Assembly: GCA_039638295.1 (NCBI GenBank)
Contig: JBDIWJ010000022.1
Span: forward strand, 1-26,471
Length of the DNA stretch: 26,471 nucleotides
From: Candidatus Phoenicimicrobium oleiphilum
GTDB lineage: Bacteria; Atribacterota; Phoenicimicrobiia; Phoenicimicrobiales; Phoenicimicrobiaceae
Direction of reading: 5' to 3'
Part shown: positions 9,649 through 25,887 of the stretch, piece after piece
Layout of the letters: each line of letters starts with the position of its first letter
How positions within the stretch are numbered: the stretch's first letter is position 1
Notes under the pieces: generated by a model
The model's database searches: none
What the model was told of the DNA's origin: nothing
What the model saw: only the letters and a program-made list of their open reading frames with translations
Translations under genes and position numbers: made by a program

Positions 9649-10938
9649 TTAATACTCTATCTTATTCATCCCCACATAAATAGAGGTGGTCTCACCAGCA
9701 TATACCCATACATCCTCTACCCAGGTTCTATATCCATCTTTAACTAAAGTAATCTCATACTCCCCTTCTTTAATTTCCTCCAGGATTTTTGGTTGAGAAG
9801 AAGAGGACGCTGCCTTATAAGTTCCGTTTATAAATATTTTTGCTCCAGTTACATTACAGTAAATTGCCAGGGAACCATACTTTATTTCGGGAACCAAATA
9901 AGCAGATACCGTGCGAGTTTGGTTAGCTACAACCAAAATAGTGTTAACCCAGTCCTGATAGCCATCTTTGGTAATCATTAATTCGTGATAACCCGATTTA
10001 ACATTCTTTATTTCTACCGACTGGTTAGCATAAGTTCTTCTCTGGTAATTTCCGTCTAAATAAATCTTAGCGTTACCTTGATTACAATAAACAGAAATCG
10101 AACCGTAGACAGGTAAAGGAACCAAATCAGCTGAAACTGTAGTAGTCCGAGAAGGTGAAACTGATACATAATCACTCCAATCCTGATAACCTGCCCTTTC
10201 CAATTTAATATGATGCTGCCCAGCAGTAACTCGGTCTAAATTTAAAGGAGTTAATCCTTTATAAACATTATCCAGATATACCTTAGCCCCTTGAGGTTGG
10301 GAAGTTACTATAATCCTACCATAATAAGTGGGAGGTGGAGTGATTGGCCTTACTGTATAACTTAATAGATTACTGGAAGTCCAGGCAGTAGGAGGCATAG
10401 ATACTATTATACCTTTCAGGGTAATGGTAAAGTTTTTAAAATCTTTGCTTATTTCTGGCATTATTTCCTTAGAAATTAATTCTTTTTCTCGATCATCTAA
10501 AAACATGGGTCTGGTGGTAGCAAATCCCTGCACATATTCAACTCCTGGTCGGGTATGGGGGTCAATTACTCCTTCAATCGCTTTAGTTTCTCCCGCTCTG
10601 ACAAAATTGTCTGGGGTATACCGATTGGGGAAGATAATTTTTACCCTACCTTCGGTATCGTAGTTATAAATCTTTACATAAGAATCCCGAGAAACCTGAA
10701 AGAAAATTCTAATCCTCTCTCCGGGGGAATAAATATATCCTCTTTCTTTATCCAGCCATAATCTAAGAGAAAATGGGGGATGAGGATTGATAATCTGGAT
10801 GCTTTTCATCTTCTCTGTCTCTTCTTGAGTTTGGGCGAAATTAACTCCAGTAGTAATCAAACAAAGAGAAAGGACTAAAGCAGCAAAAATGTAGCTAAAA
10901 ATCTTTCTTTTCTTTATAAAAAGTATGCGATTTAACAT
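9649..10938 (-). CDS. Exported DUF4384 + three-PEGA-domain protein
   Basis: Signal peptide; YSPGERIRIFF...KIIFPN (DUF4384-like); three repeats of YG.I.V....GAK.YL(D/N)G....G.H...I.K.GY.(D/T)W; GGAGG RBS. Confidence 0.8.
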   Translation of the reverse strand: MLNRILFIKKRKIFSYIFAALVLSLCLITTGVNFAQTQEETEKMKSIQIINPHPPFSLRLWLDKERGYIYSPGERIRIFFQVSRDSYVKIYNYDTEGRVKIIFPNRYTPDNFVRAGETKAIEGVIDPHTRPGVEYVQGFATTRPMFLDDREKELISKEIMPEISKDFKNFTITLKGIIVSMPPTAWTSSNLLSYTVRPITPPPTYYGRIIVTSQPQGAKVYLDNVYKGLTPLNLDRVTAGQHHIKLERAGYQDWSDYVSVSPSRTTTVSADLVPLPVYGSISVYCNQGNAKIYLDGNYQRRTYANQSVEIKNVKSGYHELMITKDGYQDWVNTILVVANQTRTVSAYLVPEIKYGSLAIYCNVTGAKIFINGTYKAASSSSQPKILEEIKEGEYEITLVKDGYRTWVEDVWVYAGETTSIYVGMNKIEY

Positions 10939-12908: not shown

Positions 12909-13159
12909 TTTTCTCCTCCTTATAATATTGAATTCCTTATTTAATATCCACATTTACTAATCTATGTATGCTACTTTTCATCTCTTTTTATTTTTACAAC
13001 AATAAGAAGCTTATTTAAAAAATCACCTCCTATTATCATATAGGATTGTCAGGGTGGTAGACTCTAAAAATTTTTTACTTTAATTTAAAGAATAGTAATT
13101 TTCCAATTCTTTTACTTTAAATTATAACACATTTTGATTTATATTTTTTATCTACTTTT

Positions 13160-14512
13160 TCAACTTTTTATCATTAATTTAATCTTTTGATAATCATCAA
13201 CATTAATATCGGGTGACAAATAAGGTAAAAGTGCATCATTATGAAACAAAGGGTCAACAGTTCCTTTTAAATTAAAATGGGATTTGGCTTTGTTCCAGAT
13301 TTTGGTGCCCGGGATGGCAGAAAACTTAGCTAAACGCGGATGAGCTCCACAATCTATCACAAAATGGACAGAATCAATAATTTCCCGAAAATTCTGCCCA
13401 GGTAACCCAATTAAAAGATAAGCACCAATTTGAGAAGTTTTGAACCCTGCCTTCAAAAGATAATCCACCGCCTTTTTAAATTCAAGATTGGTTACTTTTC
13501 CTCCAGTTTCTGACTGGCGATGGGGATCTACAGTTTCAAAACCCAATCTAATGGTCTCCACTCCTGCCTGGAACATCTTTTGGGCTATTTCCTCGTTTAT
13601 CATTCGAGCATGGAGACCATTAGGAGTATGAAGTCTAATAGATAATTTTTTATTGATTAATTCCTCTAAAATAATCAGAAAATTATCCTCTGAATTTATT
13701 AAAAGGGCATCATCATAAAAAACAAAATCCTTTATATTTCTTAACCTGTGCCAGTATTCTATCTCTTTTACCACCTCTTTAGGGTTTCTAAATTCTAATT
13801 CAGGATTTATTCTAAAAGAAGCACAATAACTACAGCGGAAAGGACATCCCCGGGAAGATAGGATACAGATATAATTAAGATTTGGATAAAGGTCCCAATT
13901 CGGATAAGGCAAATAGTTTAAACCTTTTTCGTATTTTGAATAATCACTTTTACTTCCGCCAAGTTCTTCTAAGATTTTTAATAAATCTCCTATATCATTC
14001 CCCTTTACTACGTAATCAGCTCTGGAAAATTGAATAGAGTGGTGATAACATAAGGTTGGATAGATCCCTCCTAAAATAATAGGAATATCGGGAAAAACTT
14101 TTTTCACTAACTCTATCACCCTGAATACCCCTGGATACCAGTAGGTCATAATAGAGGTAATCAATACTGCCTGCGGAAAAGGAATTTTGGTTAACTCATT
14201 TATAAATATGTCCTCAGTAATCCCATATCGACTAAAACGACGAGGGATATTTTTTAAAACTACGGGTTTTTTAACTTCTTCTTTGTAGAAAGACCCTCGG
14301 CCAAATTCATCATTCTTAGGAAATTCTCTATTCTGTAGTTTTAGGAGCTCTTGATTATAACGGTCCATACAATCCATATAGCTAATCTCATAACCCTGTT
14401 CTTTCAAGATGCTGGCAATATATAGTAACCCTAAGGGTTTGGACCAGAAATCATAAGCTGTAAAATCATAAATCCAGGGATTAATCAACAACAAATTAAA
14501 ATTTTTTCTCAT
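13160..14512 (-). CDS. B12-binding-domain radical SAM protein
   Basis: LLINPW...PLGLLYIA, ILGGIYPT, SRGCPFRCSYC (CxxxCxxC), FYDD, LGFET, LIGLPGQ. Confidence 0.88.
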   Translation of the reverse strand: MRKNFNLLLINPWIYDFTAYDFWSKPLGLLYIASILKEQGYEISYMDCMDRYNQELLKLQNREFPKNDEFGRGSFYKEEVKKPVVLKNIPRRFSRYGITEDIFINELTKIPFPQAVLITSIMTYWYPGVFRVIELVKKVFPDIPIILGGIYPTLCYHHSIQFSRADYVVKGNDIGDLLKILEELGGSKSDYSKYEKGLNYLPYPNWDLYPNLNYICILSSRGCPFRCSYCASFRINPELEFRNPKEVVKEIEYWHRLRNIKDFVFYDDALLINSEDNFLIILEELINKKLSIRLHTPNGLHARMINEEIAQKMFQAGVETIRLGFETVDPHRQSETGGKVTNLEFKKAVDYLLKAGFKTSQIGAYLLIGLPGQNFREIIDSVHFVIDCGAHPRLAKFSAIPGTKIWNKAKSHFNLKGTVDPLFHNDALLPYLSPDINVDDYQKIKLMIKS

Positions 14513-14541
14513 CGACTATTCAGTTCTTTTACCTTAAATCT

Positions 14542-15003
14542 CTAAAAAGACCTGGCGATAAAGAAATTCCTTTCCGCTAAAAAAATATCATTGATATATA
14601 CCTTAACCTTCCACTCTCCGGGTAATTTAGAAGCATATCTATCCCTAATCTTTATCCAATACCAGGTGCGATAATTATTGTAACTACCAGCTTCCATCTC
14701 TACTTCTCCCCGATGATACAATTTCCCTTGTGGGGTAATCCATTCCCATCTAAGTACAAAATTTTCTGGTGAATCATAGGAAAACCTGACCCAGGAAACT
14801 ACTTTCTCATCCTGAGAGATAAAAAAATTAGTCTCTTGTAAAGGATTTTTTTCCACAATATCTTTACATAGAGCAATCTTTTGCAAGTATTCCGAATCCT
14901 TAGCCGCCTCTTGGGCCATACCTGCTGCGGAGAAAATCATTAAAAGTAATGCCGACAACAACCACAATTTAATCCTAAAAATACTCTTTTTCTTTAACAT
15001 CAA
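14542..15003 (-). CDS. Exported hypothetical protein, beta-rich (DUF2914-like)
   Basis: Signal peptide ending AGMA; W.WITPQG...YRTW...LPGEWKVKVYIND pattern. Confidence 0.6.
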   Translation of the reverse strand: MMLKKKSIFRIKLWLLSALLLMIFSAAGMAQEAAKDSEYLQKIALCKDIVEKNPLQETNFFISQDEKVVSWVRFSYDSPENFVLRWEWITPQGKLYHRGEVEMEAGSYNNYRTWYWIKIRDRYASKLPGEWKVKVYINDIFLAERNFFIARSF

Positions 15004-15065
15004 AATTATTTTCCTCCCTTTTATTAGTCGTTAGTAAATAGTGAATATTATTACTACGAATTTGG

Positions 15066-15119
15066 TGTAGGGGTCGAATTTATTCGGCCCGAAACGGGTT
15101 CGATGAATCGAGCCCACAG
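15066..15119. repeat. Tandem REP doublet
   Basis: TGTAGGGGTCGAATTTATTCGGCCC-GAAAC-GGGTTCGATGAATCGAGCCC. Confidence 0.75.
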
Positions 15120-15282
15120 TATCTACATTTTCATAGACAAGCGGGCCTGTCTTACGGCTTTTTATAGATCATTGAGAACATATACAATAAGCCCGTACTT
15201 CTGGCTCCTGGATACCAGCTTCTATCTTCTTTTTCTCTTAACGATATACGGCATACTAAATACGATATACTTCTTTATAATT

Positions 15283-15310
15283 ATTCTCCACTCTTACCCC
15301 AAATTCCTGC
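15283..15310 (-). promoter_or_regulatory. Putative sigma-H-like promoter GCAGGA-N15-GGAGAAT
   Basis: Matches the Bacillus sigma-H AGGA...GAAT consensus; lies between the fmdB terminator and the 153-aa gene. Confidence 0.55.
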
Positions 15311-15351
15311 AAGTTTTTAAAAAAATTTTTTATTTTTTACTCTTTCAAAAT

Positions 15352-15398
15352 AAAAAAAGCAATAGTCTATTATTTATTACTTAAACTATTGCCTTTTT
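15352..15398 (-). terminator. Probable intrinsic terminator after the FmdB-family gene
   Basis: GCAATAGT...ACTATTGC stem with A and T tails. Confidence 0.6.
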
Positions 15399-15413
15399 AA
15401 ACATAATTTTATT

Positions 15414-15644
15414 TTATCCACAGGTTGAGCAAGAACGGGATGAACACGAGCTGCAAGAACTTGAACTTGAGCTGGTCAAGGATGAAGACTTTCCGGTAGA
15501 AAATCCAAAGCCATTAAATATCCTCTTGATATTTTTGCTCTTACACTTTACACAGGATATCTTGCCTTCTTCCATCTCTTTGATAGTTGCTCTAACCTCA
15601 AAGGTTTCATGACAATCTTGACATTCAAAATCATAGTTTGGCAT
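15414..15644 (-). CDS. FmdB family zinc-ribbon protein (CxxC_CxxC_SSSS)
   Basis: MPNYDFECQDC...CVKCKS and a Ser/Cys-rich tail. Confidence 0.88.
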   Translation of the reverse strand: MPNYDFECQDCHETFEVRATIKEMEEGKISCVKCKSKNIKRIFNGFGFSTGKSSSLTSSSSSSCSSCSSRSCSTCG

Positions 15645-15699
15645 CTTAACTTCCCCTTCTTTTTCATACTATTTTTGTCAACTTTTTTTTCTATATTTA

Positions 15700-15728
15700 T
15701 TTATACTCCAAACTATCTTTTCTGTCAA
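15700..15728 (-). promoter_or_regulatory. Sigma-70-type promoter for the FmdB-family gene
   Basis: TTGACA-N17-TATAAA on the minus strand. Confidence 0.6.
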
Positions 15729-15798
15729 GAAAAAAATATATAAATCTCTGGAGAGCATTCTTAAAAAACCTACCAGAGAACCGTCCCCTGGTGCCTTT

Positions 15799-16908
15799 TT
15801 ATCTTATGGATGTTCCTTTTATCATCTCCAATATCCAGGGCTGGGCTTGATTATATTTATCTGCTGGAACAGTTACGATTATCATAAAAGGTGTACCAGG
15901 ATAAGTAACCACAAGTGTGGCGTAATTTATATTATCCTGCGGATTAAACTTAGAATAAAGCTCAACCAAAGCCTGTCTGCTTCCAGCTTGCAGCTGGCTT
16001 TGCCCGTGAAACTGATGATTGGGTTTAATCTGATTTACCATACCCTGAACATATTGTTCTCCCAGAGTATACATAGCTACAATACCTGCACCATCAGGTG
16101 TGTTTAAGACTACACCTATTTCAGTAGTTTGAGTAGTAGTGCTACCAGCAGGAATGGGGATGCTGAAACGACCCTGGGGATCTGTATAGATATTCATTCC
16201 AGCAGTCGCTGGAGGTTGAATGGGTATACTAGGAGTACTTGGAACCGGTGTTGTTACAGGTGGTGCAGTTGGTTGAGGGGTAGGACAAATAACTGGTGGA
16301 GTAGGAGTTGTGGTTGGTGGAGTAGGAACTGGTGTCGATGGTACAACTGGTTGAGGGGTAGGTTGAATTGCTATTGGTGCCCCACTTTGCACTTGAAAAC
16401 TCGCCACTGCTTGAGCAAAACCTGGTTCCACTTGAGCAAAATAATCAAGTAAAACATCCAAAAGGATAGTATAGGCAGAGTTACCACTAACGAACATATA
16501 AGCTTCTGCTTGTAAAGTTAATCCGGTCTGAGGGCTGAAAGCAAAATTCTTTTTTATTGCGGGTAAACCAAAAATAGATGTAGGAAGTTGAGTCCCGGGT
16601 TTATAGCCAGGAAGCTGTTTAAAGCCATTTTCTTCCGCTGCTGCTGCGTATTGGTCTATACTTGCACTAAAGGGTAATTCTTCAATCATTACAATTAATT
16701 CTCCCACAATCCTTTGTTGAACCGAATAAGTAAAATAGGCTGCTTGAGAAGAATCGTAAGGAGTAGCAGCTTTCCAACCGGCAGGTAGGTTAAAGGAAAA
16801 ACGACCTTGAGGATCAGAATAAAGGCTCCCCTGACCATAAACTATCCCCATACTTAATACTAATACAATTAAAATTATTCCTATAATTAATCTACATTTT
16901 ATTCTCAT
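15799..16908 (-). CDS. Exported protein with two PsbP/DcrB-like domains joined by a Pro/Thr-rich linker
   Basis: Signal peptide; YSDPQGRFSFNLPAGW and YTDPQGRFSIPIPAG domain starts; PTPQP/PTPPTT linker. Confidence 0.7.
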   Translation of the reverse strand: MRIKCRLIIGIILIVLVLSMGIVYGQGSLYSDPQGRFSFNLPAGWKAATPYDSSQAAYFTYSVQQRIVGELIVMIEELPFSASIDQYAAAAEENGFKQLPGYKPGTQLPTSIFGLPAIKKNFAFSPQTGLTLQAEAYMFVSGNSAYTILLDVLLDYFAQVEPGFAQAVASFQVQSGAPIAIQPTPQPVVPSTPVPTPPTTTPTPPVICPTPQPTAPPVTTPVPSTPSIPIQPPATAGMNIYTDPQGRFSIPIPAGSTTTQTTEIGVVLNTPDGAGIVAMYTLGEQYVQGMVNQIKPNHQFHGQSQLQAGSRQALVELYSKFNPQDNINYATLVVTYPGTPFMIIVTVPADKYNQAQPWILEMIKGTSIR

Positions 16909-17043
16909 TACTTTTTTCTCCTTTCTATTTTTATAATATTAATGTTTAGTAAATATTTTTCAGATTAACCCTTTTTCCCCTGTCTTCTCTCTGGTAAAGA
17001 AAGGGGAAATAACCTATTTACCTAACTGTAACATACATCTCAC

Positions 17044-20000
17044 CTATCTGTAATCTCCAATCAGGATAAATCCTGCCCAGGCAACGGGGAGACCATATTC
17101 TTGCGCTAATTCTCTTTGAGCTCGACCGAGAGCTTCTACTTTAGCCATTCCCTCCTGTTTCCAGTATCCAAAAAATTTTATAAAAAGTTCCATTGTGGGC
17201 CTATCAAATACACTCCACAAACTGGCGATTACTGTGGGAGTGCCAGCATAAAGAAATGACCTCACCAGACCTATTAACCCTTCAGCTTCGCTTAATTTAC
17301 CTAATCCAGTCTCACATGCACCTAAAGCCACTAAATTGGCTTTCAAATCTAGTGAAAATACCTCATAAGCCCTTACTTCTCCATCATTTTTTTCATCTTT
17401 AGCTAAACAGATTATACTATATAGAGGTCTTTGGTCATCAGCTAATCCGTGGGTAGAGAGATGAATTACATCAAAATTAGAACAAATTTCCTTAAATTTC
17501 GTCTCAGTAGCTTCTTTACCGATAAAAACATCATTATAAATGAAATTTCGAGCCGTAATCTTAACTTCCTCCGCACTCAAAGGCAAGGAAGGTAGATCGG
17601 TTCCTTCAAAAGAGGGATTACCAAAACCAAGATAACTCTCCTGATTTCCTCTATTTTTCCCCAAGCAATAGTAATAGACGCTGGCAGAAGGGACATAAAA
17701 TAAATTATATCGGTCTACTAAAAATCCATCTTCACCCTTTAATGCCTGAAAAGGAAGGTAAAAAAGGCTGCGATGAGGAATTATCCCTATGGTAGTCTTA
17801 TCGCCTATTAGAGCTTCTACCGGGGTAAAAAGTATCCGGTAAAGTTCCTCACAAATCTTCTGATAGTCATAGTCACCTTCAGTAGCAGTAAAAGCCTTCC
17901 GAGCCTCTTCAATTTTTTTATTAAGATTAATGTCTTTTATACTTATCTCTTTAGTCTTTACCCCCCCTTGTTCTATCGCCCATACTAAAATCCTATCTTC
18001 GGTATTATAATAATCTAATAAAACAATTTCTTTATCTAAAATCCCCCTTATTTTATCTAAAGTAAGAGGATTGATGGTAACTAAAGAGGCTACTTCGGGA
18101 GAATAGTAATTTAAATCTTCTTTTACCTGATAATAAATTTGTTGAAGTTTCTTTTGAATCTTTTGTAATTCTTCTAAATAAGCAGTGTTTTGTTGTTCAG
18201 TCGGTTTAGATCTTTCCTGGCGTTCCTTTTCTTGAAGAGAGGTAATCCTTGTTTCTACATCTTGAAGTTTGCTAAACATCTCTTTATCTTTATCTTTTAC
18301 TTCCAGTATTGCTCCTCCCAGGATATCTAAAAAACTACGTGCTCGTGCCCTCTCCGTATAATCAAAAGCCTCTTCAAATCGGCCTAAATCCCAGAGAACT
18401 TCTATAGTCAAATCATAAGCTAAAAGTTTATTTTCAAAAAAACCTCTCTTCATTTCGGCAGAGGTAAGTTTTTCTCTTAATCCTTCTAAAATGTCTATAG
18501 CCTGTTTAAAGTAAGTAAGGGATTCTTCTCTTTTCCCTTGTTCTAATAATATTCGCCCTAAACCAGTCTGACAATACCAGATCATCTGGGAATAATTTAA
18601 TTTTTGAGCTAATTCTAAACTTTTTTTAAAATATTCTTCTGATTTGGTCACCTCCTTCATATCCAGGTAGATAGTCCCCAAATTACCATAATCCAAAGCC
18701 AGATCAAAAGGCATATTTAATTCCTGGTGAATCCTTAAGGCCTCTAACTGGCTTTCTAAAGCAAGTTCTAAATTGCCCAGATGTTGGTTTAAAGAGGCAA
18801 AATTATTCATTAAGGCTGCAATTCGGGGCTGAATATTTAATTTTTCATAGATTTTCATTGCCTCGGTATAAGCAGCAATCGCATCCTTATACCGCTCTTC
18901 ATTATTATACACTACCCCCAGATTCATCCAGGCATCAGCTATAGTTAAAGGATAATTTAAATTAGTCGCCAATCGAAGGACCCGGGTAATATAATTTTCC
19001 GCCTTCTTTAAATCATTAGTCTGTAAATAAAGGCTTCCCAGGTTGGTATATACCCCTATATCTCCAGGCATATTATATAATTGAATAAGCTCCTCTGCTT
19101 CCTCTAAGACCTTCCTGGCATTTTCAAAATCTCCTTTATCCAGGTAGATAATTCCCATATTATTGAGCACCCAAGCCTCCTGGTAACCCAGTTCCATTTC
19201 CCACGCCAATCTCTGTCCATCTATTAGATACTGTAGGGCTTGATTAGAATCTCCCCAGGCTTCATGAGAAAGACGGGCTAAAGAAAGTTTAGCCGCAAAT
19301 TCTCCGCACTTAAAACCGTTCTCTAAACTGACCTGTAAGGAGGATTCACAAACTTGCTGGGCTTTTTGGTAATCTCCTCTTTCAACATAGACATAAGCCA
19401 AATTGTTTAAAGATAATGCAGTTATTTCTACATTTTCAGCCCGAGTAGCTAAATCACAGGAGTCTAAGAAATATTTTTCTGCTTTTTCTAAGTCTCCTCG
19501 ATAAAAAGATATTATCCCCAAACTTAAAAAGGTAGAGGCTTTTCCAGAAATATCTTGAAGCTGTTCAGCTAATTGGTAAGCAAGTTGAGCGTATTCTTCG
19601 GATTTATCCAAATCCTGGTAACTTTGATATATGCCGGCCAGGGTAATATAAACCTTCATAATCCCTGAATTATCTTGCAAGGCTTCATATTTTTCTAATG
19701 CTTGAGGAAGTACCTGATGGGCTTCATCATCCTTCCCCTGACGATACCAGGCTCTCCCCTGATAATAAAGGCTATCTGCAAGTAAATCATCTTCCCCCTG
19801 AGAAAGCGCGAGGGCTTTTAAGATATTCATCTCTTCTATTAGGCGAGAATATTGACCGGTAAGATAAATTTGGTCAGCCCTACACTTGATATATTTAATT
19901 ACTTCTTCCTGCTGTTCAGGTGAAAGAGAGGTAATATCCAGAGAATAAGACAAAAAATCCTTCTTTTTAATCTCATTTTCCACCCATAGAGAGGGCTCAA

Positions 20001-20139
20001 ATTCAGTGTCGGGTAGACTTATAACTGTTCCATCATTTAAAGTTATTGAAACCCCTTGGCCGAATAAAGGAAATAAAAATAATATCATCAAGCTGATAAT
20101 TATCCCCGTTAGGATTATAAAAGTACTCTTACTCTTCAT
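17044..20139 (-). CDS. TPR-repeat + CHAT (caspase/separase-like cysteine protease) protein with N-terminal signal/anchor
   Basis: About 10 ~40-aa TPRs (SLNNLAYVY, VLNNMGIIY, AWMNLGVVY, DYGNLGTIY), ERARARSFLD, IIPH.SL..LPF.AL, VIHLSTHG (His), LGACETG (Cys), ASLWSVFD, WAGFILIG. Confidence 0.92.
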   Translation of the reverse strand: MKSKSTFIILTGIIISLMILFLFPLFGQGVSITLNDGTVISLPDTEFEPSLWVENEIKKKDFLSYSLDITSLSPEQQEEVIKYIKCRADQIYLTGQYSRLIEEMNILKALALSQGEDDLLADSLYYQGRAWYRQGKDDEAHQVLPQALEKYEALQDNSGIMKVYITLAGIYQSYQDLDKSEEYAQLAYQLAEQLQDISGKASTFLSLGIISFYRGDLEKAEKYFLDSCDLATRAENVEITALSLNNLAYVYVERGDYQKAQQVCESSLQVSLENGFKCGEFAAKLSLARLSHEAWGDSNQALQYLIDGQRLAWEMELGYQEAWVLNNMGIIYLDKGDFENARKVLEEAEELIQLYNMPGDIGVYTNLGSLYLQTNDLKKAENYITRVLRLATNLNYPLTIADAWMNLGVVYNNEERYKDAIAAYTEAMKIYEKLNIQPRIAALMNNFASLNQHLGNLELALESQLEALRIHQELNMPFDLALDYGNLGTIYLDMKEVTKSEEYFKKSLELAQKLNYSQMIWYCQTGLGRILLEQGKREESLTYFKQAIDILEGLREKLTSAEMKRGFFENKLLAYDLTIEVLWDLGRFEEAFDYTERARARSFLDILGGAILEVKDKDKEMFSKLQDVETRITSLQEKERQERSKPTEQQNTAYLEELQKIQKKLQQIYYQVKEDLNYYSPEVASLVTINPLTLDKIRGILDKEIVLLDYYNTEDRILVWAIEQGGVKTKEISIKDINLNKKIEEARKAFTATEGDYDYQKICEELYRILFTPVEALIGDKTTIGIIPHRSLFYLPFQALKGEDGFLVDRYNLFYVPSASVYYYCLGKNRGNQESYLGFGNPSFEGTDLPSLPLSAEEVKITARNFIYNDVFIGKEATETKFKEICSNFDVIHLSTHGLADDQRPLYSIICLAKDEKNDGEVRAYEVFSLDLKANLVALGACETGLGKLSEAEGLIGLVRSFLYAGTPTVIASLWSVFDRPTMELFIKFFGYWKQEGMAKVEALGRAQRELAQEYGLPVAWAGFILIGDYR

Positions 20140-20213
20140 CAATTTTTCTTCCCATAATTTTATTTATTGGATAGTTTTCCAAAAAACAACTAATTTTTCC
20201 TTAAAACAAAATA

Positions 20214-22535
20214 TTATTTTACCACTCCCAAAGCCCTCTTATAACTAAGTATCATCCGATTGAAATATTTTTGTTCTTTCTCTATGAAAATATTCTGAGG
20301 TGCCTGGGTTAAAATAACATATCCCATTCCAGAAGAAGGGCCATAAACTCCAGTATAGATAACATAAGTTTCTATATTAAATCTAAAAATAGTTTCCTGG
20401 TAACTCCCCTGTAAATTTACCTTACCTTCAGTTACTTCTATCGCCCCACTACCAGGAGTGGGTACTATTTTAAATTCCTGATTTAATATAGATAAATCAG
20501 TAACCTGTTGTTGTAAAAGATAAGTCATTTGCTGAGCAAGGTCTTGAGCACTGTTAAACTGCCCCATTAAACCGGGGAAAAGGGTCAAAGAAGTAAGCCC
20601 ACTGGCGTCTTCAGAAAAAGTAACATTTCTATTAAAGGAGTCTAAATTTACCAACCACGTAGATGGGTACTCTAAATAACCAGTAATTAAGGGATTATGA
20701 CTAAAAGCTTGATTTAAACTGTATTGTTTCCAGATTATCTGGGGTTCTTGAGGAGTACCCGGAGTAGGTAAAGCAATTCCACCAGGTCCAGGCTGAGATG
20801 GAACAGGCTGTCCTGGAGGAGTAAGAGTTATTCCTCCTTGAGCAGGTGCGCCGGGTGCAGGACTAACTATTCCTTCTGGTCCAGTAGCTGGAGAAGTTGT
20901 CCCCGGAATAGCTGTAGTGGTCTGTGGGGTAGTGGGAGAAGGAGTAGTCGGAGTTAAAGAAGGTAAAATCTCCCCTTCTCTCTTTACGCCTATTTCAGGA
21001 TTAACTTCCTTACCTATATCTGAAAAACAACCTCCTAGAAAAGATGAAGAACGATATTGTGGGGAAGTAATGAAACTTCCTATTTTAGAACTTAATTTTT
21101 GTAAGGAAGAACCTATAGAAATATCCTCTTCAACTCCTCTCTTGGCGTTTCTTAAAATCCAGGTTTTTTCTGAAAGAGGAGCTCTACTAACTTTTATTTG
21201 AGAGATAGTGCCCTCTCCTAAATTTTTTATAGGAGAACCTAATTGATCAATTACTCTTCCTCGAAAAGTTGTACTTATATTAGAATTAGTAGTTGGATTA
21301 AAGGCTATCTCTCTCCCTAATCCCCTAATATAGGAGAAATTAAAATTTGTCGGATAAAAACTTCTGATAGCTAAACTCTGAGAGGAAATTTTTCTCCCCA
21401 GAGAAGCAGGGAATAAATTAGCATAATTTCCTAACATAATTCTTTTAGAAACTGCCCAGGGGAAAATTGGATTTTCTGGAAATAGACGCACTAATTTTGA
21501 ACCAAAACCTCGTGAAATAAGAATAGGTTTAAAATATTTAAAAGGTTTACTATAACTCTTGTTTATTCCTCTTGGATAATTAAATTGATTGATTTCTTCA
21601 GAAAATCCTCTCGTCTGCGTCAAATTTTCTGAGTAATTTATATTAATCTTATTGTTATTCCTTACTCCTATCTCTTTCGGAACCTTTATTGACCTTTGGA
21701 CTGGAATAGGTTTTCCACACCCGGGACAGAACTTATAATCCGGCTGTAGTGGTGTTCCGCAATAAGGACAAAACTTAATAGTAATTTCTTCAGTAGTAGA
21801 TGAAGTAGTAGAAGAGGAAGGAGCCTCAGTTGTAGTAACTACTGAAGTTACATCAGATACTGGAGGTACTGGCTCTGTTGTTCTCTCTGACACAGTAAAG
21901 CTATTAAACATTGTCTCCAATTGAGGTAATATTTGGTCAAATTTATCTCGCACTACTTGACCTTCTAAAATATAACCCTTTTTGTCTTTTACCAAATAGA
22001 CATCAACTGCTTTAATAGGAATCTTTGAATTATCCTCTTTGTGTATCTTAGTCCAAGTATAAAGCCTTTTTATAGCCGGTAAACCCCCAATAGTTATCGC
22101 TTCTTCATTAATTTTATTATATTCAGGCATATTTTTTGGGTCTAACATCCATTCTTCTACAGAAATAGCATAACTTGCTAATGATGAATCATAATTTTCA
22201 ACATATACCGAAAAAGCAGCTATTATATAGTCTCCCTCAAAGAGATCAATCTCTGCTTTACAAGTCCCTGTATCATCCATCTCATAATAGGGTTCCCAAG
22301 TTTCAGGATAACTGAATTTAAAACTGCAATCAGGGTCAGAATAAGAATAAATATTGGGAACGAATACCGTCTCAGGGATAGCAGAAGGAGAAACTGGGGG
22401 AGGAGTAATATTAGTAGTAGGTGGAGTGGGAGTTGGACTGCTTTCGGTTAAAGAAGGCAACCCCTGAGCCAATCCTGCACTTCCTAAAGTTAAGATTAAA
22501 ACTAAAGCAACAAAATAAAAAATTAATTTTCTCAT
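20214..22535 (-). CDS. Exported multidomain protein: PsbP/DcrB-like domain, double zinc ribbon, degenerate Arg-Gly repeat region, Pro/Gly/Thr linker, probable second PsbP-like domain
   Basis: Signal peptide ending AGLA; YSDPDCSFKFSYPETW; CPYCG...CPGCG; GYLEYPSTW; ATG 22535 preferred because GAGGTG (containing the GTG at 22544) serves as RBS. Confidence 0.7.
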   Translation of the reverse strand: MRKLIFYFVALVLILTLGSAGLAQGLPSLTESSPTPTPPTTNITPPPVSPSAIPETVFVPNIYSYSDPDCSFKFSYPETWEPYYEMDDTGTCKAEIDLFEGDYIIAAFSVYVENYDSSLASYAISVEEWMLDPKNMPEYNKINEEAITIGGLPAIKRLYTWTKIHKEDNSKIPIKAVDVYLVKDKKGYILEGQVVRDKFDQILPQLETMFNSFTVSERTTEPVPPVSDVTSVVTTTEAPSSSTTSSTTEEITIKFCPYCGTPLQPDYKFCPGCGKPIPVQRSIKVPKEIGVRNNNKININYSENLTQTRGFSEEINQFNYPRGINKSYSKPFKYFKPILISRGFGSKLVRLFPENPIFPWAVSKRIMLGNYANLFPASLGRKISSQSLAIRSFYPTNFNFSYIRGLGREIAFNPTTNSNISTTFRGRVIDQLGSPIKNLGEGTISQIKVSRAPLSEKTWILRNAKRGVEEDISIGSSLQKLSSKIGSFITSPQYRSSSFLGGCFSDIGKEVNPEIGVKREGEILPSLTPTTPSPTTPQTTTAIPGTTSPATGPEGIVSPAPGAPAQGGITLTPPGQPVPSQPGPGGIALPTPGTPQEPQIIWKQYSLNQAFSHNPLITGYLEYPSTWLVNLDSFNRNVTFSEDASGLTSLTLFPGLMGQFNSAQDLAQQMTYLLQQQVTDLSILNQEFKIVPTPGSGAIEVTEGKVNLQGSYQETIFRFNIETYVIYTGVYGPSSGMGYVILTQAPQNIFIEKEQKYFNRMILSYKRALGVVK

Positions 22536-22612
22536 TTCGTTCACCTCTTTTATAAAAAATTTATGAAAATATTTTCTCTCCTATATATTTATACTTACCT
22601 TCTATGGTTTAC

Positions 22613-22642
22613 ATACGATATTTTTTCAAAAAATCCTTCTTT
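22613..22642 (-). promoter_or_regulatory. Putative sigma-H-like promoter AAAGAAGGA-N14-ATCGTAT
   Basis: Same recurring motif, about 80 nt upstream of the 776-aa gene and downstream of the riboswitch. Confidence 0.55.
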
Positions 22643-22752
22643 TTATACAAAAAAAATTAAAACTTTTTAAAGTACTTCTAAATATATTATTAATGAATAA
22701 CCTCCTACATCATCTCCATATAAAAGTGCAAATATTTCCAAAATAAAAAAAG

Positions 22753-22837
22753 CAGGCAGTCTGACAATCGTAGTATTAAAATGCCTTAGACCCATAACTT
22801 TGCGTCCTATCCTTTCGGATAGTTTGCCTTTTTCAAC
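22753..22837 (-). ncRNA. Cyclic di-GMP-I (GEMM) riboswitch
   Basis: Minus strand reads GGCAAACTATCC-GAAA-GGATAG-GACGCAAAG-TTATGGGTCTAAGG...TACGAT...CTGCC: GNRA-capped P2, GCAAAG junction, CTAAG/TACG receptor and GGCA/TGCC P1; U-tract follows. Confidence 0.92.
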
Positions 22838-22972
22838 TTTGTAAAATAATTATCCCATTTATATTATTCCCTAAATTCACTAATTTTAGACCTGATTTTA
22901 GGCAATATCGAAATACACCCCTTACGCCTTATAATTTAATAAAAAGTAGTCTGTCCTCTTTTATATCTCTTA

Positions 22973-23063
22973 AACTCGTAACTAACAACTTGAAACCAGA
23001 AACTTATTGCTTATTATATATTACTTATCACTGGTTACTTTATACTACACGCTATGAGCTAAT
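22973..23063. repeat. Degenerate heptamer array, about 13 units
   Basis: AACTCGT AACTAAC AACTTGA AACCAGA AACTTAT TGCTTAT TATATAT TACTTAT CACTGGT TACTTTA TACTACA CGCTATG AGCTAAT. Confidence 0.55.
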
Positions 23064-23158
23064 TTTTACGCAATATGTGATACAAAGTTAATGTAAATTT
23101 TCTTTCTTTTTCCCTAGTTCTTTTTCCTTACTCGATACTAATTTGGTACTAATTTGGT

Positions 23159-23187
23159 TTGACAAATACTTAAAAAAAGTATAAAAT
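23159..23187 (+). promoter_or_regulatory. Sigma-70-type promoter of the K+ uptake cluster
   Basis: TTGACA-N17-TAAAAT just upstream of the c-di-AMP aptamer. Confidence 0.75.
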
Positions 23188-23209
23188 CCGAAGGTAAAAA
23201 GGTCAATCG

Positions 23210-23340
23210 TTTTTTTACGCTGAATTTCCTAATCGGAAAACCGGCGAACCAAATTTAGGGGCAAATCTTATTTAAATAATAAGTAAGGCAATCCATTCAG
23301 CTTGAAACCATCAGCTAACCACGTAAGCGTTGGAGGTGGA
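23210..23340 (+). ncRNA. Cyclic di-AMP (ydaO/yuaA) riboswitch
   Basis: CGCTGAAT...GAACC...AGGGGCAAATC...GTAAGG...GAAACCATCAGCTAACCACGTAAGCG matches the ydaO consensus blocks; sits upstream of K+ transport genes, the established context. Confidence 0.88.
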
Positions 23341-23375
23341 ATGATTTTATAAATATATTTGTTATTAACAAATAG

Positions 23376-23410
23376 TAGAGAAACTAAATATTAGATAGTT
23401 TCTCTATTTT
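23376..23410 (+). terminator. Leader terminator, probable expression platform of the c-di-AMP riboswitch
   Basis: TAGAGAAACTA-AATATTAGA-TAGTTTCTCTA-TTTT between the aptamer and the first CDS. Confidence 0.7.
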
Positions 23411-23468
23411 AGTTTAATAAAAGTTCTTAAAATTTAGAATAAATTACTTTTTATAAAAACCAAGTGGG

Positions 23469-24347
23469 GTGAACCTCTTGAAAATAATTATCATAGGAGC
23501 AGGAAAAGTTGGTTGTCAAATAGCTAAAACTCTATCTTCAGAAAGTCATGACGTAATATTAATTGAAAAAGATAATACAGTTCGACAATCTGCTCAAAAT
23601 AGTTTAGATGTACTCACTATTTTAGGCAACGGAGCCAATGTTCATACTTTAGAAGAATCAGGAATCAAACAAGCAGATATGTTAATTGCAGTAACTAATA
23701 GCGATGAGGCAAATATACTTGCCTGTATGACCGCTAAAAAATATGATGTTCCCAAAAAGGTTGCTCAGGCAGAAAGCTTTGCTGGAGGAAAAGTGCAAAT
23801 TCTTGAACTTAAAATCGAAGGAGATTTTCCTTATATTAACCAAAGACTAAAGGATATTAAATTTGAATATCCTATATTAGTGGCTGCTATCTTTAGAAAA
23901 GATAAAATAATTATTCCTGATGGAGAAGAAAATATAGTTTTAGGTAATAATTTATATGTTTTAATCGAAAAAGATAATCTCCTGCATTTAAAAGAATTTT
24001 ATAAGCTGATACATCCTCAAGCAGTTACTCCTATCAGATTGGGAGATAAAGTAATTTCTGAAGATGTGATACGCAATATTACTGGATTTTTCTTTCTATA
24101 TATCTTAATTTTTGTAATTTGTACTTTTATAATGTCTTTGTTAGGATTGGATATATTAAGTGCTATGGCTTCAGTTGCCGCTACTTTAGGAAATGTAGGA
24201 CCAGGCCTCGGTTTGGTTGGACCAGCCCAGAATTATGCTTTTATACCACCCTTGGGGAAAATTACTTTGATTCTCTGTATGCTATTGGGTAGATTAGAAA
24301 TATATACTGTATTAATTCTGGTTGTTCCAGAATTCTGGCGGAAATAA
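23469..24347 (+). pseudogene. In-frame chimera of the TrkA N-terminal half (internally deleted) and the TrkH C-terminal ~115 aa
   Basis: TrkA: IIIIGAGKVG, AVTNSDEANILAC, SFAGGKVQ, AIFRKDKIIIPDG. TrkH: KLIHPQAV, ATLGNVGPGLG, MLLGRLEIYTVL, FWRK. Confidence 0.7.
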
Positions 24348-24356
24348 ATAAATCAG

Positions 24357-24490
24357 TCGTCAATATATCGTATTGCGTATTGAGTATCGCGGTAAGAAAA
24401 TCAAGATTAAGAAGTAGGGGCAGGATGTATCGTACCCTACAAGTGGCATTAGATGATAAAATGATGAGAGCACAATTCATTGTGCCCCTA
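24357..24490. repeat. Heptamer array followed by an inverted pair of GTAG-type REP units
   Basis: TCGTATT GCGTATT GAGTATC; GTAGGGGCAGGATGTATCGTACCCTAC ... GAGCACAATTCATTGTGCCCCTA. Confidence 0.7.
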
Positions 24491-24543
24491 AATATAATTA
24501 CAATTAAATTAAAATTTAAAATTTAAAAAATGAGGTAAGCAAA

Positions 24544-25887
24544 ATTACATCACCGGTTAAAATAATAAAAGAAGAAAAATTATCACCACCTCAGGTCTTA
24601 CTATTAGGATTTCTGACAGTAATTATCATAGGGACTATACTTCTTAACCTGCCTGCTGCTTCCAGCACAGGTAAGAGTGTCGGTTTTATTAATGCCCTTT
24701 TCACTGCCACTTCTGCCACCTGTGTTACCGGATTAATTGTTTTAGACACTGGGAAGGATTTCTCTACTTTTGGGCAATTAACCATTCTAATACTTTTGCA
24801 ATGTGGTGGATTAGGGATAATGACTATGTCCACTATGTTTGCCTTTTTAATGGGTAAAAAAATCTCTTTAAGGCAAAGATTAATAATGCAAGAATCCTTA
24901 AATCAATTTTCTATTGGCGGTTTAGTTCGCTTAGCCAAATATATTTTGATATTTACTGTAATTATCGAAGGTGTAGGGGCAACTATTCTGTTCTTTTGCT
25001 GGCAAAGATTTTATTCACCTATCAAGGCATTATACCTGGGAGTCTTTCATTCTATCTCTGCCTTTTGTAATGCTGGATTTTCTCTCTTCTCAGATAGTAT
25101 AATGCGTTATAAAGGAGATTTAACCATTAACCTGACTTTTATGGCTCTAATTATATTAGGAGGAATTGGATTTTTGGTGTTATTAGAACTTTTTCAATAC
25201 GGGAAAAACGGCACTCTTTCTTTGCACGCCAAATTAGCTTTAAAAATCAGTCTCATACTTATTCTAATCGGTTTTATAGGTATATACCTTATAGAATCTA
25301 ACAATCCTTTTACTCTGAGTAATCTTAATCTTTCAGAAAAGATATATGGTTCAATCTTCCAATCAGTTACTGCCCGTACTGCAGGTTTTAATACTATACA
25401 TATTGGAAGTATGTTAAATCCTACCCTATTTTTAATTATAATATTAATGTTCATAGGGGCTTCTCCAGGTTCTACTGGTGGAGGAGTCAAAACCACTACC
25501 TTTGGATTACTTATATTATATGTTTGGTCTTCCTTAACCGGGAAGGAAGGAATAAATCTTTTTAAGAGGAGAGTTTCTCCTGATATAATTCCTAAAGCAT
25601 TAACTGTTATTACCCTTTCCCTTGCCCTGGTTATCACTATGACTATTCTATTATCCTATGTAGAAGGAAAAGATTTCATAAAAATTTTATTTGAAGTTGT
25701 TTCTGCTTTTGGCACAGTAGGATTATCAACAGGCATCACTCCATCTCTGAGTGTGGCTGGAAAAATTATAATTATCATCACAATGTTTAGTGGGAGAGTT
25801 GGTCCTCTGGGTCTGGCTTTATCATTGATTAAAAAAAGAGAACCAGAAGTAATTAAATATCCTGAAGAGAAGGTTATGGTAGGATGA
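24544..25887 (+). CDS. ktrB: KtrB/TrkH-family K+ uptake membrane subunit, probable non-canonical ATT start
   Basis: Frame extends 84 codons upstream of the track's TTG and encodes LSPPQVLLLGF...ALFTATSATCVTGL; also SAFCNAGF, TARTAGF, GASPGSTGGGVKTTT, SAFGTVGLSTG and GRVGPL; GAGGT RBS 7 nt before ATT. Confidence 0.88.
   Translation: MTSPVKIIKEEKLSPPQVLLLGFLTVIIIGTILLNLPAASSTGKSVGFINALFTATSATCVTGLIVLDTGKDFSTFGQLTILILLQCGGLGIMTMSTMFAFLMGKKISLRQRLIMQESLNQFSIGGLVRLAKYILIFTVIIEGVGATILFFCWQRFYSPIKALYLGVFHSISAFCNAGFSLFSDSIMRYKGDLTINLTFMALIILGGIGFLVLLELFQYGKNGTLSLHAKLALKISLILILIGFIGIYLIESNNPFTLSNLNLSEKIYGSIFQSVTARTAGFNTIHIGSMLNPTLFLIIILMFIGASPGSTGGGVKTTTFGLLILYVWSSLTGKEGINLFKRRVSPDIIPKALTVITLSLALVITMTILLSYVEGKDFIKILFEVVSAFGTVGLSTGITPSLSVAGKIIIIITMFSGRVGPLGLALSLIKKREPEVIKYPEEKVMVG

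Follow-up and report, generated by a model that had tools for sequence, protein, structure and literature searches.

CHAT-domain proteases that act on dedicated partners are known from several systems. HetF of Anabaena PCC 7120, a CHAT protease with tetratricopeptide repeats (TPRs), cleaves one dedicated substrate, PatU3, at R117↓S118 (arrows mark actual or candidate bonds); changes of R117 abolish and S118A slows the cleavage (passages of PMC9457339). DdvA of Myxococcus xanthus is a solved periplasmic TPR-CHAT protein with a His-Cys dyad, whose activity is still a proposal in the sections of PMC11506125 used here. Separase cleaves unstructured substrates after Arg, with docking motifs away from the site (passages of PMC10317155 and PMC12609080). 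Here we analyze a three-gene unit (genes A, B, and C) in a 26,471-nt stretch of DNA (the window) of Candidatus Phoenicimicrobium oleiphilum. Close homologues carry source names that assign the organism to Atribacterota (Ca. Caldatribacteriota), for which unusual membranes and signal peptides are described (passages of PMC7736352). The unit is real and conserved, and it may represent a CHAT-substrate proteolysis system in which the product of A is the named candidate substrate and Arg↓Gly/Ser bonds are the candidate cleavage sites.

Gene B encodes a TPR-CHAT protease that is intact, as judged from its sequence. CHAT (PF12770) is matched at an E value of 6e-60 together with TPRs, and the structure model, with a predicted local distance difference test score (pLDDT) of 88, consists of a TPR superhelix and a CHAT domain. 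The catalytic dyad, H897 and C942, is invariant in 58 aligned rows, which agrees with the caspase-like protease described in an earlier annotation made from the sequence alone (the initial annotation). The best fold matches of B are separase, Csx29, and DdvA (E value of 5e-15 for DdvA), and yet B is neither a Craspase component nor a DdvA-type anti-sigma factor. A profile search of the Protein Data Bank with the whole length of B was dominated by TPR matches. Csx29 of Craspase, the type III-E clustered regularly interspaced short palindromic repeats (CRISPR) system, shares the fold, the dyad, and a substrate encoded nearby, whereas it is cytoplasmic, is activated by RNA, and cuts after Met or Leu (passages of PMC11506125), and the alignment column of D979 of B is occupied by Ser in Csx29 rows of the Scalindua type. 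The Cas7-11 partner of Craspase, a repeat-associated mysterious protein (RAMP), has no match in the organism's own genome (91% complete) or among the open reading frames (ORFs) of the window, which supports the statement that the unit is not CRISPR-linked. DdvA is extracytoplasmic as B is likely to be; however, DdvA is a transmembrane anti-sigma factor with a cytoplasmic zinc domain, has an extracytoplasmic function (ECF) sigma partner, and controls a CRISPR system together with a cyclic oligonucleotide-based antiphage signaling system (passages of PMC11506125), whereas B has no cytoplasmic zinc anti-sigma domain and no adjacent sigma gene. A separate system with an ECF sigma gene, a likely anti-sigma gene, and two flanking TPR-CHAT genes was observed at L071:1312-7787 (G028); its likely anti-sigma factor has a membrane helix followed by YRGG.

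The N-termini of A, B, and C are all basic-hydrophobic by hydropathy, in line with the signal-peptide-like N-termini noted in the initial annotation. The hydrophobic segment of B covers residues 5-25, and a small-x-small↓Gln pattern at the end of the N-terminal segments recurs in relatives of all three proteins. These features suggest that A, B, and C are likely exported, and the N-termini may act as cleaved signals or as membrane anchors. Export of a TPR-CHAT protein is not new, since a periplasmic one has been solved; the view that all characterized CHAT proteases are cytoplasmic does not hold for DdvA (passages of PMC11506125). Neither is export unusual, contrary to what had been assumed: 57 of 67 full-length relatives in other phyla have a hydrophobic N-terminus, scored by a threshold set in this analysis. 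In HetF, the TPRs are periplasmic and were removed with the membrane helix for the active CHAT construct (passages of PMC9457339), whereas the whole TPR-CHAT protein is probably exported in the case of B.

Gene A had been described as a PsbP-like, zinc-ribbon, and repeat protein. The first two parts are confirmed. Domain 1 adopts a predicted PsbP/DcrB/Mog1p fold (Foldseek E value of 4.5e-8; Z score of 16.9 and rmsd of 2.4 against 2xb3 over 146 aligned residues), though the Pfam match to PsbP is weak, and the zinc ribbon (PF13240) scores above its cut-off, with a ratio of nonsynonymous to synonymous substitution rates (dN/dS) of 0.09. The "repeat", on the other hand, is not a regular repeat. 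Residues 277-522 are modeled at a pLDDT of about 25, indicating predicted disorder over 246 residues, and are studded with nine Arg↓Gly/Ser sites (R281, R309, R322, R342, R391, R404, R425, R466, and R495), compared with the single site of PatU3 (passages of PMC9457339). Across 53 homologues, Gly or Ser comes next after 49.5% of the Arg residues in this region, compared with 23% expected by composition and 13% after Lys. A protein search with residues 277-525 gave no usable hit, which carries no weight either way. In the window protein, Gly or Ser follows 9 of 18 Arg residues (shuffle p of 0.004); of 51 homologues tested in this way, all related to one another, 40 have a shuffle p below 0.05. 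Among 821 ORFs of at least 250 residues in the own genome, A ranks first for site density (background, 11.6%). Region 277-522 is under purifying selection, with a dN/dS of 0.28, close to that of the folded domain (0.24), compared with 0.57 in the first linker. R281, R292, R309, R495, and R519 are kept in 24 of 24 genes, three of them preceding Gly, Ser, or Thr and two not, and Lys rarely substitutes for the key Arg residues. The initial annotation proposed an extracytoplasmic regulated-proteolysis module and left it undetermined whether the neighbors are partners or substrates. Co-conservation, the intact protease, and likely export fit such a module, and the array of Arg↓Gly/Ser sites favors A as the substrate.

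The relation between the site and linkage to B should also be noted. In distant orders, A is short and consists of a signal, a Pro-rich linker, and the C-terminal domain, and the long disordered stretch is limited to the window's family. Where such a short A is encoded next to B, one or two sites (TRGG, IRS, or ETRSG) are present in five of eight cases, compared with none of the 19 unlinked family members. The count omits two frameshifted members, G079 (with a site) and G058 (without a site), and assigns linkage by a 141-nt contig overlap in G063 and by a B start at the contig end in G061. The A protein of G075 has ESTQSGLP where linked kin have ETRSGLP, so that Gln occupies the Arg position; it is nested among B-linked members, and its genome (89% complete) has no CHAT.

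From these observations, we propose, with a probability of about 0.5, that B cuts A at the Arg↓Gly/Ser sites and that C serves as an adaptor. B, likely exported, would take the neighboring A as its dedicated substrate, and the cationic stretch of A (net charge, +19) would thread along the acidic TPR groove of B (net charge of the TPR part, −28). Cleavage would part the N-terminal PsbP/zinc-ribbon half of A from the C-terminal domain and release short cationic pieces, and C would hold the pair together through its C2 domain and the C-terminal domain of A. By analogy, the unit would work like HetF-PatU3 or separase-Scc1 relocated outside the cytoplasm, and B likely cleaves after Arg. Separase itself is eukaryotic and intracellular (passages of PMC10317155 and PMC12609080), and the ExxR motif is absent from A. 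B keeps E858 and D979, which we infer may form its Arg pocket; identification of D979 with the Arg-binding Asp of separase was rejected because the numbering disagrees.

Several points weigh against this proposal. Both the cutting of A by B and the binding between them are predictions. B does not keep the Asp with which separase binds Arg (Cys+41): a weak alignment (E value of 1.4) puts this position at about T982/M983. The Arg specificity of B rests on analogy to HetF. The motif was chosen after the sequence had been inspected, and R292, R365, and R519 are invariant or nearly so without Gly or Ser next to them. The Fisher p of 0.0007 for site against B linkage overstates the association, the members being kin, and the 19 unlinked members fall in about five clades, so that their count is not independent. 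Three B-linked A proteins (G070, G063, and G061) have only Arg-Pro or Arg-Ile, and a clean paired loss of site and CHAT is seen only in G075 (and in the broken G058). In 69 loci of other phyla (L089-L158, with L100 left out as Atribacterota), the exported neighbors of CHAT proteins show no enrichment in Arg-Gly (0.083 versus 0.076, p of 0.66); a general Arg-Gly rule for the neighbors of exported CHATs was therefore rejected. Finally, the cleavage model leaves the zinc ribbon in a likely exported A unexplained.

The charges of A and B would also suit a securin-like role, in which A is a keeper or bait whose cationic stretch wraps the acidic TPR part and holds B inactive or folded, the target of B lying elsewhere. 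B is closest in fold to separase, A is retained beside B even where it has no site, hydrophobic and aromatic positions of the stretch are as well conserved as Arg, and the PsbP-fold relatives of A domain 1 include immunity proteins and chaperones. Securin, however, blocks by lacking the Arg before the scissile bond (passages of PMC10317155), whereas A multiplies Arg, and the long stretch is confined to one family while B is phylum-wide. This role is rather unlikely in our view.

The sites divide the region into about eight pieces of 13-49 residues with net charges of −1 to +6. A might be a polyprotein precursor from which B frees cationic peptides as signals or antimicrobials; the regularly placed, conserved sites bounding conserved segments, and the purifying selection on a disordered region, speak for this. 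The amphipathic moment, however, does not exceed that of shuffles in any of the eight pieces (p of 0.11-0.80), whole segments of the array are deleted in P0048, P0053, and P0058, a distant orthologue may have only one site, and no receptor gene adjoins the unit. A precursor function seems improbable.

The co-occurrence asked for in the initial annotation is borne out by close and distant loci. The close-kin set comprises 35 metagenome loci, 29 of them distinct, with identities of 56-100%; wherever the contig leaves space, A is succeeded by B (34 of 34 loci), and a complete B with space after it is succeeded by C (27 of 27). Other Atribacterota orders, which provide a more stringent test than close kin, have the same A-B-C arrangement (G070, G085, G080, G083, G076, and G079, the last one decayed). 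In G078, G063, and G061 of distant orders, A-B extends up to the contig end. B is 32-37% identical in the distant orders, and the B proteins of both groups form one phylum-wide clade in a quick tree of 84 rows (SH-aLRT support of 99). Among 86 genomes, CHAT is found in 17 and the A C-terminal domain in 20, and the unit occurs patchily, in 3 of 30 genomes of the window's family. Decayed copies were also observed: B ends before the catalytic domain at L044:494-2749, A is frameshifted, B split, and C broken at L068:7400-12400 (G079), and a riboswitch at L026:9011-9101 has no 3' half. Such patchiness, and the action of known TPR-CHATs in defense, might indicate an antiphage or CRISPR-linked module like DdvA or Craspase. 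Against this, PADLOC yields only its generic TPR model on the unit, the neighbors are Trk, radical SAM, HU, and SpoVS genes, the unit has no sigma or anti-sigma gene, RAMP matches are missing from the genome as described above, and B forms a single clade across the phylum; a defense function is very improbable. No gasdermin match was found for A, B, or C in Pfam, NCBIfam, or PADLOC, the search covering these proteins and not the genome.

C has only weak Pfam matches to PsbP/DcrB and no Arg-Gly/Ser site. Its first domain, C1, is homologous to A domain 1 and is followed by a Pro/Thr linker and the C2 domain. The C-terminal domain of A is poorly modeled, and language-model features give a PsbP-like lead (0.93); its family is small, with 22 representatives in a set of 1.84 billion proteins, and the source names are those of Atribacterota, Synergistaceae, and Aerophobetes. 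The Synergistaceae homologues P0187-P0189 have Arg-Gly/Ser sites, and a CHAT neighbor is predicted for them. A-family genes adjoin a C2-bearing gene in most other loci fetched (exceptions: L160, L162, L163, and L177). The partners include a TPR-WD40-caspase with C2 in the same polypeptide, proteins of the ankyrin/TPR and DUF4919 types in which C2 is repeated in tandem, and a C1-C2-TPR protein (G075). C2 is fused to a C14 caspase in one locus type, and the two domains are also paired in loci without CHAT, which suggests that C2 and the A C-terminal domain may dock to each other and that two kinds of caspase-like protease make use of this pair. This pairing without CHAT would also fit a surface scaffold in which A, B, and C assemble through PsbP-fold domains, the Arg-Gly/Ser region binds polyanions or is the target of a different protease, and other proteins are the targets of B; the variable copy number of C1/A1 (L031, L037, and L065) and the lack of motif enrichment beside CHATs of other phyla are in line with it. 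Against the scaffold, Lys is not followed by Gly/Ser and seldom replaces the key Arg, and the site is missing from all 19 unlinked family members. We consider the scaffold doubtful.

The caspase-C2 loci show further features. In L169:11491-15165, L164:4177-7851, and L067:3-2216, an exported TPR-WD40-Ig-caspase(C14)-C2 protein is encoded directly 5' of an A-family paralogue; the linker of this paralogue has no Arg, and the caspase has a conserved YQR↓G just past the catalytic Cys motif. An LP(S/T/P/A)L motif recurs in the Pro-rich linkers of A, its orthologues, and C, often directly after an Arg site (TR↓SGLPSL and KR↓EAETLPSL), and is possibly a docking motif. As a tentative and rather doubtful extension, Atribacterota may have had an ancestral extracytoplasmic caspase-like processing system in which a PsbP fold docks CHAT on its substrate, and in one lineage a lone Arg↓Ser switch site may have been multiplied to give a polyprotein with nine sites, from which cationic peptides are shed under control of cyclic di-GMP (c-di-GMP).

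A covariance scan confirms the c-di-GMP-I aptamer said to lead the unit: RF01051 matches positions 22838-22752 of the minus strand over the full model (positions 1-87) with 77.2 bits against a cut-off of 35 (E value of 8e-14). The aptamer was taken as integral to the unit, yet an Rfam scan of the DNA 5' of A detects it in 14 of 19 close loci, with one truncated case and with no more than 339 nt to scan in L027. It is present in none of 7 distant loci, two of which offer little DNA before A. The riboswitch is an addition particular to the lineage. A conserved promoter-like motif of the AGGATTTT type lies between the aptamer and A and also occurs in L018 and L025, which have no riboswitch. The form AGGATTTT-N-(T)GTNG(A/T)AT is found upstream of 30 of 1283 own ORFs, compared with 10.6 in shuffles, and is likely a lineage promoter class; the AGGATTTT-N-GTAT motif 5' of A may be sigma-H-like. 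The aptamer, aligned over 17 leaders, is followed directly by a U run, and the hairpins before this run are weak (−0.9 to −5.3 kcal/mol). With the promoter-like motif 3' of the aptamer, c-di-GMP may therefore control the unit in either direction, strongly or weakly.

The own genome has four GGDEF matches above the cut-off and five c-di-GMP-I aptamers, which indicates that the host makes c-di-GMP. The other four (G000 C2:37712, C20:18990, C62:1291, and C3:83477), two of which have a long insertion in P2, lead genes for a DUF4382 lipoprotein-like protein, a PAS/HD-GYP-type protein, a type IV pilin, and a small exported protein, which agrees with the tie to surface genes that had been suggested. 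In the window's family, the riboswitch likely adds control to A-B-C jointly with pilin and other surface genes, so that the output of the unit is most likely remodeling of a cell-envelope or surface assembly. In the LapG/LapD system, c-di-GMP controls surface proteolysis through a receptor protein. That system similarly ties c-di-GMP to an extracytoplasmic cysteine protease and surface proteins, whereas its protease belongs to another family and its sensor is a receptor protein rather than a riboswitch. Back to back with the c-di-GMP riboswitch, a cyclic di-AMP riboswitch (64 bits; relatives, 89-106) was observed at 23208-23344 on the plus strand, leading Trk/Ktr potassium genes; the Trk ORF at 23469-24347 resembles a TrkA-TrkH fusion with an internal deletion.

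The features of the unit are listed in Table 1. Gene A starts at the ATG at 22535, with a GAGGTG ribosome site in front. The three genes are co-oriented with short gaps, as annotated, which measure 74 nt (A-B) and 135 nt (B-C). No terminator-like hairpin of the kind found after C lies in either gap, though a scan for such hairpins found 5 sites against 6.4 expected by chance and is weak evidence alone. The B-C gap (16909-17043) contains an 8-bp inverted repeat, TTTCCCCT/AGGGGAAA, without a U run. Contigs from four RNA-run sets cover genes and intergenic DNA alike over 13000-25000 and are therefore uninformative on expression and co-transcription. Past the terminator, an exported DUF4384-PEGA gene (9649-10938) and a gene for an exported 153-aa protein (14542-15003) are syntenic downstream in many loci.

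Table 1. Features of the A-B-C unit in the window
Feature	Position	Strand	Description
c-di-GMP-I riboswitch aptamer	22752..22838	−	RF01051 match; U run directly after
Promoter-like motif AGGATTTT-N-GTAT	22613..22637	−	About 100 nt 5' of gene A, 3' of the riboswitch
Gene A, 773 aa	20214..22535	−	Signal-like N-terminus, PsbP-fold domain, zinc ribbon, Arg↓Gly/Ser region, Pro/Thr linker, conserved C-terminal domain
A domain 1, residues 60-217	21885..22358	−	PsbP/DcrB fold (predicted); homologous to C domain 1
A zinc ribbon CPYC..CPGC, residues 256-276	21708..21770	−	PF13240
A residues 277-522	20970..21707	−	Predicted disordered, net charge +19, nine Arg↓Gly/Ser sites; candidate cleavage array
A C-terminal domain, residues 598-773	20217..20744	−	Small family; PsbP-like by language-model features only
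Gene B, 1031 aa, TPR-CHAT protease	17044..20139	−	H897 at 17449-17451, C942 at 17314-17316
Gene C, 369 aa	15799..16908	−	Signal-like N-terminus, PsbP-like C1, Pro/Thr linker, C2 domain
Terminator-like hairpin and U run closing the unit	15772..15792	−	3' of gene C

In the open-access literature searched (supplements excluded), neither the partner family, nor the multi-site array, nor the paired presence and loss of site and protease was found, and no paper reporting an extracytoplasmic substrate of an exported TPR-CHAT was found. Exported TPR-CHATs are common, yet their extracytoplasmic targets are not reported there. For the unit described here, both a candidate substrate and the precise candidate bonds can be named, and natural homologues that have or lack the site can serve as controls. 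The unit also hints that an abundant phylum of the subsurface has its own dedicated system for proteolysis in the envelope.

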